A stretch of 30,282 nucleotides of DNA from a virus (IMGVR_UViG_2671181050_000003), one strand, 5' to 3'. Shown: positions 13,704 through 28,334, counted from the first letter of the stretch. Notes: a model not told the origin generated them from the sequence alone. Numbers and translations are program-made.

Positions 13704-13843
13704 GGTTTATTACCGTTACTGTTGACAATGAGAACTGTTTTCATTTAGAAATGATTGATGTCGAAAGCATCCTTTCGTTAGATTCTCCATTGGGATTACC
13801 TCCGCCAGTCTCCATTCCTGTTGCTGGCGGTTTTTTTCGTCTG

Positions 13844-15817
13844 TTATGCTGCTACGGCATTCACACCAACAGTAAGACTTTCAATCAGCACAGGGTAAGT
13901 TGCCGCATTTCCGGTAATATCCGTAATTGCCAGCGCGTTGGCCTCAAAGGCTGCATTCGTCCATCTGGTCAGCGTAAACGGTTTTCCTGCTGCATTATCA
14001 AGCACCGGCGTGACGTTCAGCGAGCCACCACCCGGGAAGCGGAAAGTCAGCGTGTGCCAGTCGTGATCGAACGGACCATAACTACCAAGCCGCTGTGATG
14101 TGGTGTTTGCATGATACATCACATTGATGTTTGTTTTATCAGTCTGCAGATAGAAGGCCGCAATATAACCCTCCTCTGATTCCGCTCCCGGCCATCCACT
14201 ACCGCGCCAGTAAATACCCGCAGAATATTGATTTGCAGAAGCATTGAGAGATACATCATCGGGGATTTTAAAGCGCAGCGTGATTTCACCGCCGTTATCG
14301 AACAGCTCCTTCCCCTTACCGGCATCAATTGCGTGCGATACTTTCCAGGTCTTTTTCTGTGCAAGACCATTTTCTGGTTTTTCAAGACGAAGGGCTTTTT
14401 TACCTGAACCACTGTCACTGACCAGCGTGTTTTTGACATCTGTCAGCGTCCAGCCCTGCGAAGCCAGATCGGCATTTTCCGCATTCGCATCATAAGCCAG
14501 CACTGACTGTATCTTTGTCGGGACAACGGATTCAGGCTGAGTATCGCCACTCTCCTGTGCTGGTTGCGATACGCCTCCGCCTGAAGAAACCGCGGCTTTT
14601 GTCACTTTCCCGGAAACAAAATCTGCCACTCTGCCCACATGCAGAAGAATGGCTGTTGCCAGACGGTCGGAAATAATTCCGCGACGCGCCCATGAACCAA
14701 AGTGGGTTTTACGATCGGATGTTGTCCAGCTCTTCGCATCCGTTCGTCCACCGGAACCATAATACCCGATAGCCGGAATATCCGGGTCTTCTGACGGTTC
14801 ATTGGTCCCGACTTTCTGACCATTGTCATCCATCATAAACGGCACAAAGAAGATATTTTTACCGGCTTTGGTTTTGTATGCGCCATAGACGGCATCGTAT
14901 TGCGCTGAATACGTCTCCTTCCAGTAGTACGTCGTGTCACCACAAATCCAGGGCACCAGAGAAGGAGAAGCACCAGCGCACTGACCGGATACTCCCGCCA
15001 GGTCAGAACGGTATTTTTCCACCATGGCATCAAACATGGCGGGCTGACTGGCGTACGCTCCCTGTTTTAAATCAAACTCGCCCTGCATCCAGACAACACA
15101 AAGCAGTATGTTTTTGGGGTTTGCCTTCAGCGCGGCCTGAGTGCGTGTCAGCAGGTCTTTATACAACGGCTTATCAACGCCCCATCGTTCAGATTTATCC
15201 GACGCTCCTGAACTTTCACTGAACGTTCCGTCAGCACCGGCTGTAAACGCAGAGCCACCACGACAGCACGGCACTAACAAAATACCCGCATTTTCCGGCA
15301 TAAAGGGCAACAGCTTTTTGGCAATATGCAATCCCTGTCCGACACACCCATACTGCTCTGCGCTGGCTTTCGGATGAGAAAAACGGCTCAAATCCTGCAC
15401 ATCATGCAGGCAGTGGTCCGCCGGAATGATGTCGTTATATGCACAGGCCGCACCACCCGGTGTCACCGTACTGCGACGCGCCAGCTGTTTAATACGCGGG
15501 TCCGGACGGTCATATGTCTCCGGCAGCGGCAGACCTTCACCATACGCCATGCCGTTTGACTGTCCGGCCAGCGCAATGACAAAGTAATATTCTGGTTCAA
15601 CAACAACAGTCCGGGTACCATCTCCCCCCGGTGAAACTACCGGAGAGGTCATATCCCCTTCAGCGACTATAGCCTGGATAAATTCAGCACCATAACCCGC
15701 GTTTGAGATAATCGGACTACCATAGGGTTGCCAGCCTTCCTTCAGTTTTTGCGTCAGTTTTCCTGCGAGGTCTGACGGCGATGATGCCCTGACCACGTCA
15801 TAGTGTTTAAATGCCAT
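13844..15817 (-). CDS. nanS: Prophage sialate O-acetylesterase, NanS-p-like (SASA/SGNH hydrolase, about 658 aa)
   Basis: GQSN(G)M esterase motif (ALAGQSNGMAYG) and a DUF1737-like N-terminus (MAFKHYDVV...); start taken at the internal ATG with a GGGAGG ribosome-binding site; located between the late regulatory region and the holin, as in EHEC lambdoid prophages. Confidence 0.75.
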   Translation of the reverse strand: MAFKHYDVVRASSPSDLAGKLTQKLKEGWQPYGSPIISNAGYGAEFIQAIVAEGDMTSPVVSPGGDGTRTVVVEPEYYFVIALAGQSNGMAYGEGLPLPETYDRPDPRIKQLARRSTVTPGGAACAYNDIIPADHCLHDVQDLSRFSHPKASAEQYGCVGQGLHIAKKLLPFMPENAGILLVPCCRGGSAFTAGADGTFSESSGASDKSERWGVDKPLYKDLLTRTQAALKANPKNILLCVVWMQGEFDLKQGAYASQPAMFDAMVEKYRSDLAGVSGQCAGASPSLVPWICGDTTYYWKETYSAQYDAVYGAYKTKAGKNIFFVPFMMDDNGQKVGTNEPSEDPDIPAIGYYGSGGRTDAKSWTTSDRKTHFGSWARRGIISDRLATAILLHVGRVADFVSGKVTKAAVSSGGGVSQPAQESGDTQPESVVPTKIQSVLAYDANAENADLASQGWTLTDVKNTLVSDSGSGKKALRLEKPENGLAQKKTWKVSHAIDAGKGKELFDNGGEITLRFKIPDDVSLNASANQYSAGIYWRGSGWPGAESEEGYIAAFYLQTDKTNINVMYHANTTSQRLGSYGPFDHDWHTLTFRFPGGGSLNVTPVLDNAAGKPFTLTRWTNAAFEANALAITDITGNAATYPVLIESLTVGVNAVAA

Positions 15818-16018
15818 TATTCCTCCCGGCAGGGATAGTGTATGCAATCAAGATAAGGTGCGGGCTGACGTCAGTCATGGACAAGGGTTCAGAAACAGGA
15901 GGATGACTACAGCCCGCAATACGAAAAAGACCATACAGTTGCGCAGAGTGATTACTATCAGGTATTATTCGCCAGCTGAAAATTGATCACTTCACGTTTT
16001 GTTGTTTATTCCTTGCCA

Positions 16019-16047
16019 CCCGCGCTTCCCGGCGCGGGCTTTTTTTT
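16019..16047 (+). terminator. Strong intrinsic terminator on the plus strand
   Basis: CCCGCGC/GCGCGGG stem followed by eight T; no plus-strand gene upstream. Confidence 0.5.
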
Positions 16048-16054
16048 ATCCAAC

Positions 16055-16300
16055 AAGAAAGCCCCTCCGGAGAGGGGCTGGAGAGTAGCGCTATGTACCG
16101 TTCATGCATGGTGCAGGGTGCCTCCCGGTGAGTTCAGTATCAGCACCTGAACCCGCACCAGAAAGGATAAGGGGTGTGACCAAACACCTGTCGCTGATAT
16201 GCCCCTCCGCACAGGGGGATTCACCATGCCATATTTTTTTAACAAACTTCCCGCTGGCCAGACAATAATCGCCAGCCTGAATTGTGAGTAACGTGGCATT
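16055..16300 (-). repeat. Repeat unit A of an ORF-free tandem family, ending in a hairpin terminator (16061..16079)
   Basis: Shares conserved blocks with unit B (aaagcccctccggagaggggctg, catggtgc.agggtgcctcccggt, gggggattcacca, atttttaacaaa, gccagacaat, aattgtgag). Confidence 0.6.
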
Positions 16301-16324
16301 TTACGGGAAAACTGTTTTCTGCAG

Positions 16325-16534
16325 TAAAAAGGCCCGCCGGAGCGAGCCTGGAAGGATAGCGGTCATGTGATGCCGGTTTCCCGGTAACTCAGCATCGGTA
16401 TCTGAGTCAACGTTTTCTCTACTGGGTCATTTCCGATACGTTCCGCCTTCCGGCAGACTTTCATCACGTCAGAAAATATAGCACCCTGAGTAACAGGACA
16501 GTACTCAGAATTCAGGAAACTGTGACACATCCTG
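16325..16534 (-). repeat. Diverged middle unit of the same family, with its own hairpin terminator (16330..16349)
   Basis: Opens with aaaggcccgccggagcgagcctgg...tagcggtcatg, parallel to the start of units A and B. Confidence 0.4.
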
Positions 16535-16790
16535 CACAGAAAAGCCCCTCCGGAGAGGGGCTGAAGTATAGCCTAATTTCTGTCTGTCGCATGGTGCCAG
16601 GTGCCTCCCGGTAAATTCAGCCTGGCTACTGAATTTGCATGTTCGCTGGATCATACACTTTGCCAGATGCCCCGCCGCTGAGGGGGATTCACCACGCGAT
16701 GCAATTTTTAACAAATTCTCCGGCAGCCAGACAATCATCAAGCTGTGGAATTGTGAGGTATTTAAAAATTTCGCAGCCTCTTGCCACCCG
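16535..16790 (-). repeat. Repeat unit B, ending in a hairpin terminator (16544..16561 plus T-run)
   Basis: See unit A; perfect GCCCCTC/GAGGGGC stem followed by TTTTCTGTG on the minus strand. Confidence 0.6.
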
Positions 16791-16876
16791 CTTTTCACAA
16801 AAATCGTATGTAGAAGGCCGCAGCGTAACTATCACTGATGAATTCAGGACACCCAGAGGCTACGGCTCAGTTTGGA

Positions 16877-16948
16877 TTGTGGCGGCCGGAATCGAACCAG
16901 CTCCCATCGGTGCGCTGCCGATTACAATACGCGCGGCGATCCGCTACA
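16877..16948 (-). pseudogene. tRNA-like element: canonical T-arm and acceptor stem, anticodon-like hairpin, non-canonical D-arm
   Basis: Minus strand reads tgtagcg...atcgg-cagcgca-ccgat-ggga-gctgg-ttcgatt-ccggc-cgccaca-a. The GGTTCGATTCC T-loop is exact and the acceptor pairs 6 of 7, but the D-arm does not fold, position 33 is not U and no CCA is encoded. Confidence 0.35.
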
Positions 16949-17080
16949 TGACTAGTATTTTCACAGTCGCCTGTCTGCTAGCTCGCCATTGAGCTTCACC
17001 ACAACGATAAGAGCACTGCGCACACCTTTCACCAATTCCACGAGGTCTGCGGGTTCAATGCTCTTACCTGTTGTGCAAAC

Positions 17081-17107
17081 AAAAAGCCCCGACATTTCTG
17101 CCGAGGC
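17081..17107 (-). terminator. Candidate tR'-like terminator about 100 nt downstream of the putative late promoter
   Basis: GCCTCG/CGGGGC stem (one G-U pair) followed by TTTTTGTTT on the minus strand. Confidence 0.35.
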
Positions 17108-17214
17108 CTTTACCTAATCTAGCCAGTATGCCGATCCTAAATATTATCGACGACCGAGGTAAATCAGGATTTCTCTTTCGCTTCTCAGTGCGCTTTTGCT
17201 CCGAGCATACACAA

Positions 17215-17243
17215 AACATACTACTTTCATTTCTCGAAAGCAA
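17215..17243 (-). promoter_or_regulatory. Candidate late promoter pR' (TTGCTT, 17-nt spacer, TATGTT) directly downstream of the Q-like gene
   Basis: Sigma-70-like hexamers read on the minus strand; expected position for pR' and the Q-utilisation site. Confidence 0.4.
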
Positions 17244-17267
17244 CGCATTTACAAAAAATATTTTGCA

Positions 17268-17894
17268 TCATCCAGCAATCACTAGAAGTTCTTTCTCCAA
17301 TTCTCGCTTCATTGCATAAAACATTTCTGAATCAAGGACCCTCTCGCACCACACGACCCGCCTCCGGCAATACTGAATATCAACTCCTGTTATCTGAGAA
17401 ATCATCCTGGCGATATCTTGCGTGCTGTCGCGATTGCAATATCGCCTAATAGCTACATCACGGACAGGGCTTTCACGATGAAAGGTCTCAACCATCACAC
17501 GTTCAACGAAAGCAGCATCATCGGATTCTTTGGCGAGAGCAATGATATTACCTGCCGATGACTGAGGGATGACCAGTTCTCGGGCTTTCTGATGGAGTTC
17601 ATCTCCACGTAGTCCGTCTTCTTCATACAGACGCATGACAACAGACTCAATCTGCTTAGCTTTGTCATCGCTCCACTGACTGCGAATCATCAGTCGCCCA
17701 ATAACGTTAATTGCACCACAAGGAGAATCATCACCAGCGTTAACATTTCCCCATACCTGTAGCATGTAGTGAACCCATGCTTTCTGACGAGAGTTAATGA
17801 TTTTCTTCGGATGCCTCCATATGCGGCGGAAATGAGCATCATTAATAAAGTTAACCATGCCGAATACTGGGGTTAGCCGCATCACAGCCCCCAT
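17268..17894 (-). CDS. Putative late antiterminator Q (208 aa), assigned by position
   Basis: Last gene of the nin region, immediately upstream of the candidate pR'/tR' and the late genes; four Cys residues; family not recognised from sequence. Confidence 0.4.
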   Translation of the reverse strand: MGAVMRLTPVFGMVNFINDAHFRRIWRHPKKIINSRQKAWVHYMLQVWGNVNAGDDSPCGAINVIGRLMIRSQWSDDKAKQIESVVMRLYEEDGLRGDELHQKARELVIPQSSAGNIIALAKESDDAAFVERVMVETFHRESPVRDVAIRRYCNRDSTQDIARMISQITGVDIQYCRRRVVWCERVLDSEMFYAMKRELEKELLVIAG

Positions 17895-18124
17895 CCTTTA
17901 CAATGACACCACACTTCAAACATTCGTTTCACAACTTCACGGCAGTAGAAACCGTCAGCATCACGTGTCAGGTCATAGCGATCTCCGTGCTTCAGTCTCA
18001 TATAGCATTCGAATAATCTGTTCATATACTCTTCGCCATGAACTCCGCTATTACGCTGCTCATGCGCTTTTCCAGACGACCTGAATAAAGCCATGCGTTC
18101 AGGCACCTGCTGAATATCACGCAT
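17882..18124 (-). CDS. Hypothetical protein (80 aa)
   Basis: Internal ATG of track ORF 17882..18229 preceded by AAGGGGA; overlaps the ninH stop and the Q start, consistent with translational coupling. Confidence 0.4.
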   Translation of the reverse strand: MRDIQQVPERMALFRSSGKAHEQRNSGVHGEEYMNRLFECYMRLKHGDRYDLTRDADGFYCREVVKRMFEVWCHCKGWGL

Positions 18125-20341: not shown

Positions 20342-20609
20342 GACAACGCCCTCTGGTTGATGAATTTAACTATCACCACCGTCAGGTGCAAATCTTTGGG
20401 TGGTGAGACGTACAGGGTTTGCACTACCGGATCAACCAACCGGCGAGCCTTTCGGCTCCCCCATACGCCCCACCATAATTCAGATGTGCGTGTGCTTACG
20501 ACAACAAAAAACACGCTCGCGGCGTGTGTCTGTCGCGGTTGAATATCCGGGGTGCAAATCCCGACGCCAGATTTTGCTGGCGTGCGAAGAATATAATCCC
20601 GGATATGTG

Positions 20610-28276: not shown

Positions 28277-28334
28277 TTTCTGGTGACATTTGGCGGTATC
28301 AGTTTTACTCCGTGACTGCTCTGCCGCCCTTTTT
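28277..28334 (+). ncRNA. dicF: DicF-like small RNA
   Basis: tttctggtgacatttggcggtatcagttttactccgtgactgctctgccgcccttttt matches the E. coli DicF sequence as I recall it with about one substitution; followed by dicB-like and ydfD-like genes as in Qin. Confidence 0.65.

Follow-up and report, generated by a model that had tools for sequence, protein, structure and literature searches.

Organization of the locus

The window, a 30,282-nt stretch of DNA (IMGVR_UViG_2671181050_000003), derives from a lambdoid E. coli prophage, and its positions 15850-17270 show 100% identity to both E. coli G1/2 and the inducible phage PhiR5_2. The late genes on the minus strand follow the order Q-like gene, sRNA array, SASA/nanS esterase gene, and holin and lysozyme genes (Table 1). 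Since PHROG 753 is the sole match of the Q-like protein, which has no Pfam match and is labeled hypothetical by PGAP/RefSeq, this antiterminator is a poorly described Q type. The esterase gene product is named SASA family carbohydrate esterase by PGAP. The phrog_753 match and the SASA domain matches bear out the initial annotation, which had placed the array between Q and nanS.

Table 1 Positions of the array units, their flanking genes, and other small RNA loci and ORFs in the window.
Feature	Position	Strand	Details
Q-like antitermination protein gene	17268..17894	-	208 aa; phrog_753 'anti-termination protein Q-like', E 3.5e-68
Late-operon leader with tR'-like intrinsic terminator	~17230-17075 (17075..17212)	-	Directly downstream of Q-like gene
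Unit B, STnc100-family sRNA gene	16534..16765	-	Rfam match 16727-16534
Unit B distal conserved box	TTAAAT 16765-16760; CTCACAATTC 16757-16748	-	Box alignment
Unit B proximal promoter-like elements	TTGTCT 16734-16729; TG-T-TAAAAA 16713-16705	-	Promoter alignment
Unit B terminator	Stem 16562-16543; U-rich tail 16542-16535	-	Terminator scan
Unit C, diverged STnc100-like sRNA gene	16323..16498	-	Rfam sub-threshold match 16498-16323
Unit C extended -10	TGCTATATT 16483-16475	-	Promoter alignment
Unit C predicted RNA	~16469 to 16325	-	~145 nt
Unit C terminator	Stem 16349-16330, then UUUUU	-	Terminator scan
Unit A, STnc100-family sRNA gene	16049..16303	-	Rfam match 16258-16049
Unit A distal elements	TAAAAT 16303-16298; box CTCACAATTC 16288-16279	-	
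Unit A proximal elements	TTGTCT 16265-16260; TG-T-TAAAAA 16244-16236	-	
Unit A terminator	Stem 16079-16060, tail UUCUUGUU	-	Terminator scan
Convergent sRNA candidate abutting unit A	15975..16047	+	TTGCGC 15939-15944, TATTAT 15963-15968 (18-nt gap); terminator 16019-16038, then T8
nanS-type SASA sialate O-acetylesterase gene	13844..15847	-	Pfam DUF1737, SASA, DUF6645; downstream of array
Second sRNA candidate, between nanS and DUF1378/holin genes	13722-13837	+	TTGACA 13722-13727, 17 nt, TTAGAA; RNA ~81 nt
C4 antisense RNA and adjacent IsrK	20396-20583	-	Rfam
DicF	28278-28329	+	Rfam
ORF, 65 aa	16102..16299		
ORF, 55 aa	16363..16530	-	In unit C
ORF, 97 aa	16505..16798		

Three units lie head to tail at 16049-16800 (-) in the order B-C-A, and each has at its 3' end a GC-rich hairpin with an 8-bp stem and, after it, a U-rich run. 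The repeat finder returned this hairpin as a three-copy family at 16053, 16323, and 16536, and six G-C pairs are present in each stem. A GC-rich hairpin and a U tract on the transcribed strand, the features of an intrinsic terminator, were thus found in all three units, in agreement with the minus-strand hairpins that had been noticed earlier. Terminator-like sites are concentrated in this part of the prophage (12 in 15500-18000, against 2.2 ± 1.5 in shuffled sequences). Short, interrupted U tracts (UUCUUGUU, UUUCUGUG) follow the stems of A and B, which may make these two units weak in termination and in Hfq binding. Units A and B share blocks of 32-52 nt with 75-88% identity, and the spacing of these blocks varies from 468 to 483 nt, indicating that they are separated by indels, as the initial annotation had described.

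Three more Rfam sRNAs reach or exceed their gathering scores, namely C4 antisense RNA (74 bits), the adjoining IsrK (75 bits), and DicF (77 bits), and the known or candidate small RNAs in the window number at least eight. ARAGORN at default settings finds no tRNA genes in the window. A degenerate tRNA-Arg-like relic is located at 16877-16948 (-); it scores 26.5 bits against the Rfam tRNA model (cut-off 29) and is returned by ARAGORN only with relaxed thresholds. In the related prophages L005, L006, and L010, real tRNA-Arg and tRNA-Ile genes lie between the antiterminator gene and the STnc100 units.

Assignment of the units to the STnc100 family

Units A and B match the full model (1-206) of Rfam RF02076 STnc100 with 129.9 bits (E 1.5e-28) and 138.7 bits (E 8e-31), respectively, and both pass the curated gathering score of 47 bits. 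Unit C also matches the model over its full length, but with 30.0 bits (E 2.7e-4 in a permissive 1.5-kb search). Since this value lies under the gathering score, unit C is classed as a diverged relative and not as an Rfam-level STnc100 member, which fits the earlier view of a diverged third unit in the middle.

STnc100 is a known multi-copy prophage sRNA. In strain EDL933, eleven copies are transcribed without induction, and one was confirmed by Northern blot (PMC5331693). The STnc100 copy downstream of stx2B in strain Sakai overlaps the Hfq-crosslinked EcOnc27 (PMC12711010; PMC4104026). EcOnc27 was identified by Hfq crosslinking (CRAC), gives Northern bands of ~235/247 nt, and is destabilized without hfq (PMC4104026), and its published probe sequence matches an STnc100-type unit. 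RpoD binding has been illustrated at Salmonella STnc100 promoters (PMC10794520). EPEC encodes PasD1 and PasD2, which are Hfq-dependent and have mapped targets (PMC8550237), and a 2026 preprint (Zhu, Shabalina and Storz) relates STnc100 to these two sRNAs, whose genes lie, like the array, between Q and the sialate esterase gene. PasD2 itself scores 41 bits against RF02076. In recent papers, the relatives EcOnc27/sRNA103 were tied to virulence-gene transcript levels, and sequence features overlapping predicted STnc100 served as predictors of clinical outcome, in neither case through direct tests of STnc100. We found no validated target for any STnc100 proper.

Units A and B share their fold, terminator, and position in the prophage late region with STnc100/EcOnc27 of E. 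coli O157:H7, and EcOnc27 is likewise convergent to a short opposite-strand sRNA. The difference lies in the layout: the literature searched describes multiple dispersed copies, whereas the window contains three head-to-tail copies, of which the middle one is below the threshold and lacks the core motifs. The scaffold and the site between Q and the sialate esterase gene are also shared with PasD1/PasD2 of EPEC E2348/69 (Pearl Mizrahi et al. 2021), which are characterized by Hfq dependence and a seed in the linker before the terminator. However, PasD2 is only 57-64% identical to A, B, and C, the PasD copies are reported as dispersed and not tandem, and the PasD seed UGUGAG is absent from the three window linkers on the RNA strand. 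The low identity to PasD2 and the linkers without UGUGAG speak against an assignment of the units as PasD sRNAs.

The invariant 5' box CUCACAA of the E. coli-type STnc100 units (16279-16288 and 16748-16757) is perfectly complementary to the PasD seed region UUGUGAG (~1792-1798 in the PasD2 locus L004) and equals the CUCACA motif of PasD targets. If the 5' box is transcribed, STnc100 RNAs may be targets or sponges of PasD, although the complementarity may also be a coincidence.

STnc100/EcOnc27/PasD membership, together with the conserved promoter elements and the covariation described below, supports the initial annotation in its proposal of repeated small-RNA genes. The comparison with Rfam and the covariance folding that it had suggested gave STnc100 matches, sub-threshold in unit C, and the family fold in all three units.

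Conserved fold and near-invariant core

The family set was collected from annotated genomes and 120 IMG/VR contigs, in which units were located by nhmmer, and the units were reduced to 79 clusters. Of these, 70 representatives were aligned with MAFFT; the alignment was not fitted to any structure and has a mean column identity of 35%. The consensus fold consists of a closing helix, hairpin 1, a 3-bp base helix, hairpin 3, and hairpin 4. Across the 70 representatives, the predicted pairs form in 92.2% of cells, compared with 40-45% when the partners are slid, and both sides change in 21 of the 30 pairs, including all nine of hairpin 3. The covariation score of 0.365 is far above that of slid partners (at most 0.096) and was reached by none of 500 shuffles; a smaller sequence set agrees with this result.

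In MFE predictions, A, B, and C each adopt the family architecture, in which the closing helix encloses the hairpins and is followed by a single-stranded linker and the terminator. Each predicted RNA would comprise a long-range closing helix around three to four hairpins, a single-stranded linker of 17-26 nt, and a terminator hairpin with a U tail. The thermodynamic z-scores are modest (-0.8 to -2.8, the extremes being those of unit A and unit B, respectively), and predicted thermodynamic stability alone is weak evidence for the units.

Two core segments, GUGGUGAAUCCCCCUnnGCGGnGGGGC and UCACCGGGAGGCACCCGGCACCA, are at least 90% invariant across the 70 representatives. The core motifs GGUGAAUCCCCCU..GCGG.GGGGC and CCGGGAGGCACCCGG are present in A and B, and unit C has GAUGAAAGUCUGCCGGAAGGCGG and CCGGGAAACCGG at the corresponding positions. 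The near-invariant core suggests a function beyond that of a pairing scaffold, such as the binding of a partner. A 14-nt motif proved too short for a scan of genome contigs: chance matches in unrelated phyla made up most of its 120 hits, and nhmmer confirmed seven of the loci, four of them titled Kosakonia, Enterobacter, Atlantibacter, and Raoultella.

Promoter elements and 5' ends

When the family is aligned at the closing helix, TTGACA-like and TAAAnT hexamers 17 nt apart become visible, ending ~5 nt before the helix, and they are seen even in subfamilies without other common upstream sequence. Unit C carries the extended -10 TGCTATATT at this position. The corresponding elements of A and B are TTGTCT-18-TAAAAA with TG in front. 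A consensus promoter scan detected no minus-strand promoter in the array region at the scan threshold.

The E. coli-type units possess a strongly conserved TTAAAT-NN-CTCACAATTCAG box ~60 nt farther upstream, which occurs in varied contexts, and the CACAAUUC box is a 5' element of the units. This distal box and the size of EcOnc27 (235-247 nt) favor a distal start of A and B, while a proximal start is favored by the distant subfamilies and by PasD2, whose RIL-seq fragments begin at GCAUGGUG. Read from these elements, the 5' ends are ambiguous and would lie at ~16230 or ~16291 in unit A and at ~16699 or ~16753 in unit B. For a candidate 7-bp leader hairpin lying between the CTCACAATTC box and the scaffold, considered as a sign of a distal start, 84% of cells are paired, compared with 31-50% for slid partners, and its covariation is no better than that of shuffles, 117 of 500 of which match it.

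The plus strand carries a conserved promoter-like site, TTAACA-16-GACAAT, facing the promoter regions of units A and B at 16239-16266 and 16708-16735 (+). A 12-nt exact repeat, CTTGCCACCCGC, is found both upstream of unit B (16780-16796) and in the plus-strand sRNA candidate next to unit A (16012-16028). The plus-strand site and the repeat may be relics of a duplicated module of convergent sRNA pairs, although the similarity is weak and not convincing.

Plus-strand small RNA candidates

The plus-strand candidate that abuts unit A ends in the strongest plus-strand terminator of the scan. Its sequence is nearly the same as that of the EPEC Hfq RIL-seq candidate E2348C_1409.E2348C_1408.IGR, and this element adjoins STnc100 in L005 and L010 as well. 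An identity as AsxR, suggested by the position in an Stx2a phage, or as AgvB was rejected: the published sequences differ, Rfam gives no AsxR or AgvB match even at E up to 10, and the conserved ~42-nt 3' region that marks these two sRNAs (AGUAUCUCAUGCNAUUGCCCGAACCCAYUCGGGC) is not present in the candidate.

The second plus-strand candidate has the terminator CCGCCAG...CTGGCGG followed by T7 (13802-13837). It has the position and orientation of PasA/PasC in EPEC and is conserved in the Stx2a phage L010. A search for the PasA seed region with up to 3 mismatches gave no match, and the alignment shows just a loosely related element in the PasA position.

Late leader and serial terminators

The tR'-like hairpin of the late-operon leader (~17107-17080) is followed by UUUUUGUUUG, and the leader fold has a predicted energy of -48.6 kcal/mol (z = -3.8). 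The sequence right after this hairpin is the same as that after the annotated Tr' of HK75. The stretch 16772-17085 (-) shows 91-93% identity to the region downstream of Tr' in HK75, many Salmonella phages, and P22-like phages. The array units start ~300 nt farther downstream than the leader and have no sequence in common with it. They resemble a lambda-type late leader (pR'-tR', 6S RNA) in strand, neighborhood, and the possession of an intrinsic terminator of the kind read through by Q-modified polymerase, but the leader at 17212-17075 is a distinct element that does not resemble the units in sequence.

Between the Q-like gene and nanS, polymerase on the late strand meets four intrinsic terminators in series, those of the three units and tR'. 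These terminators would plausibly stop transcription from the sRNA promoters and Q-less transcription from pR' before nanS and the lysis genes, and upon induction Q-modified polymerase would plausibly read through the array terminators. Such a Q dependence of nanS and lysis gene expression, which the initial annotation had proposed, would be expected from established lambdoid biology combined with four terminators in series.

Distribution and mosaic history of the arrays

The B-C-A order is also present in ATCC 11775, strain 2D, phage vB_EcoS-733R4, and at least eight IMG/VR contigs. The flanks of these arrays vary, with tRNA genes, nanS present or absent, and other antiterminators. Same-strand arrays of 2-4 units occur in 21 of 120 IMG/VR loci, and STnc100 units are found elsewhere downstream of stx2B or of tRNA genes and also as single copies. 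Conservation of the units in related prophages, on which the initial annotation had made its proposal depend, is therefore wide.

Within the array, the paralogues are 57-70% identical (A vs B 70%, A vs C 57%), whereas their counterparts elsewhere reach 91-99%. The single-copy unit of phage PhiR12_2_star (L008) shows 91% identity to unit A, and the unit at the same position in L007 shows 95% identity to unit B. One allele is seen at position B in L005 and at position A in L007. The low identity among paralogues compared with that among counterparts, together with the position-swapped allele, indicates that the array is old and mosaic and did not arise by recent duplication.

Our search of the literature naming STnc100 returned no description of tandem STnc100 arrays, and the preprint of Zhu, Shabalina and Storz (2026) stresses the non-tandem placement of the Pas copies. 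In OmrA/OmrB and PrrF1/PrrF2, too, paralogous sRNA genes lie side by side under separate promoters and terminators, with some parts common and others differing. These are tandemly duplicated pairs of the core genome and are unrelated in sequence to the present units, whereas the array resides on a mobile prophage, and the allele that occupies a given position varies from prophage to prophage.

Alternative explanations

The four serial terminators would also suit units that act mainly in cis, as a serial-terminator cassette or a duplicated late leader enforcing Q dependence, with the RNAs as by-products. In Stx phages, the early-terminated late leader itself yields an sRNA, which counts in favor of this explanation. 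The true leader and tR' are, however, a separate element at 17212-17075, and the units also sit by stx2B, by tRNA genes, or singly in other phages, so that the duplicated late-leader element offered as an option in the initial annotation is not upheld. A terminator needs ~30 nt, yet ~150 nt upstream of each hairpin are conserved and covary. The units have promoter elements of their own, and their homologues are abundant Hfq-bound RNAs in uninduced lysogens. We consider a mainly cis-acting role very unlikely. A still more remote explanation is that the region encodes small proteins from its ORFs of 65, 55, and 97 aa. The 55-aa ORF matches PHROG 23557 (E 2e-45) and appears as a hypothetical protein in several phage records, and some EDL933 copies of STnc100 reportedly carry ribosome footprints (PMC5331693). 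On the other hand, none of the three ORFs has a Pfam match, and the covariation pattern is of the RNA type. The 55-aa ORF has no start codon in the other allele, and its substitutions are spread 8/10/9 over the codon positions. The 65-aa ORF, which had earlier been judged probably non-coding, does exist, but it has no visible Shine-Dalgarno sequence upstream of its ATG and no Pfam or PHROG match, and its frame is cut short at differing points in homologous units, with frame-shifting indels. Protein coding is thus extremely improbable, and PHROG 23557, whose function is unknown, probably represents repeated miscalls over the sRNA gene of unit C.

Two further explanations concern the RNAs themselves. 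Unit C could be a decaying pseudogene copy, with only A and B functional: its score of 30 bits falls short of the gathering score of 47, only two alleles are known, and it departs from the near-invariant family segments GUGGUGAAUCCCCCU..GCGG.GGGGC and UCACCGGGAGGCACCCGGCACCA of hairpins 1 and 4. Nevertheless, all helices of unit C are maintained, with compensatory changes against A and B, as in the closing helix, which is GUGAUG/CAUCAC in unit C and CAUGGUG/CACCAUG in A and B. Among the three units, the -10 (TGCTATATT) and the U tract of unit C are the best. Its two alleles, 100% and ~86% identical, occur in 673 of 5426 complete E. coli genomes (~12%); the RNA body is almost unchanged between them while the spacer upstream of the -10 has diverged, and the allele differences keep hairpin 1 paired, including a switch from U-A to C-G. 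In every intact array examined, unit C lies between the B-position and A-position units. Decay of unit C seems unlikely on this evidence, and we hold with moderate confidence that unit C represents a functional diverged branch rather than a pseudogene. The other explanation is that the scaffold mainly binds protein, with CsrA joining or replacing Hfq, and that the array serves as a protein sponge or guide RNA rather than as three seed-pairing sRNAs. The invariance of GUGGUGAAUCCCCCUnnGCGGnGGGGC and UCACCGGGAGGCACCCGGCACCA, at least 90% against a mean column identity of 35%, exceeds the needs of pairing, and each unit contains 2-4 GGA motifs, several of them at hairpin loops. In CsrA RIL-seq of EPEC, the pair of the yjbJ 3'UTR and PasD2 is the top chimera with ~20% of chimeric reads (bioRxiv 10.64898/2026.08.12.744399). 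This support is indirect and is drawn from a single preprint about PasD2, an sRNA that departs from the core motifs; moreover, the GGA of hairpin 1 does not hold a fixed position (GCGGNGGGG), the invariant motifs are missing from unit C, and Hfq dependence is documented for EcOnc27 and PasD (PMC4104026, PMC8550237). A primarily protein-binding scaffold of this kind is quite unlikely in our judgment, although the CsrA and Hfq readings are compatible and not mutually exclusive.

Proposed function and implications

We conclude that the array most probably consists of three paralogous STnc100-family sRNA genes with their own promoters and terminators, whose RNAs would bind Hfq and act through putative linker seeds, at a moron site between the late promoter/tR' and nanS. 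Each unit would be transcribed on the minus strand from its own putative sigma-70 promoter to its own intrinsic terminator. By homology with EcOnc27 and PasD, the RNAs would bind Hfq through the terminator and U tail, and base pairing in trans may proceed through the linker, where the mapped seed of PasD lies. The three linkers are all C/U-rich and differ from one another, suggesting three pairing specificities on one scaffold.

A more speculative extension, to which we assign a low probability, is that the STnc100 scaffold is a dedicated CsrA and Hfq platform with a swappable linker guide, that the arrays are assembled by recombination at the core, and that unit C has switched its partner. 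If so, lysogens would gain a modular, horizontally exchangeable set of post-transcriptional regulators.

The sRNA family is known, and the array opens no new kind of biology. The additions made here are minor and comprise the diverged unit C, which is missed by Rfam, and a tandem mosaic layout that is common but, as far as we found, undescribed. About one in eight complete E. coli genomes carries a three-gene sRNA cassette, including the unit C type that escapes Rfam, and RefSeq leaves the stretch empty or fills it with hypothetical proteins. Once the array is recognized, several spurious ORFs can be discarded, and with them one PHROG family. The slot that the array occupies in lambdoid prophages is where Shiga toxin genes are carried, and the mosaic arrays offer a simple system for sRNA seed diversification on a fixed scaffold.
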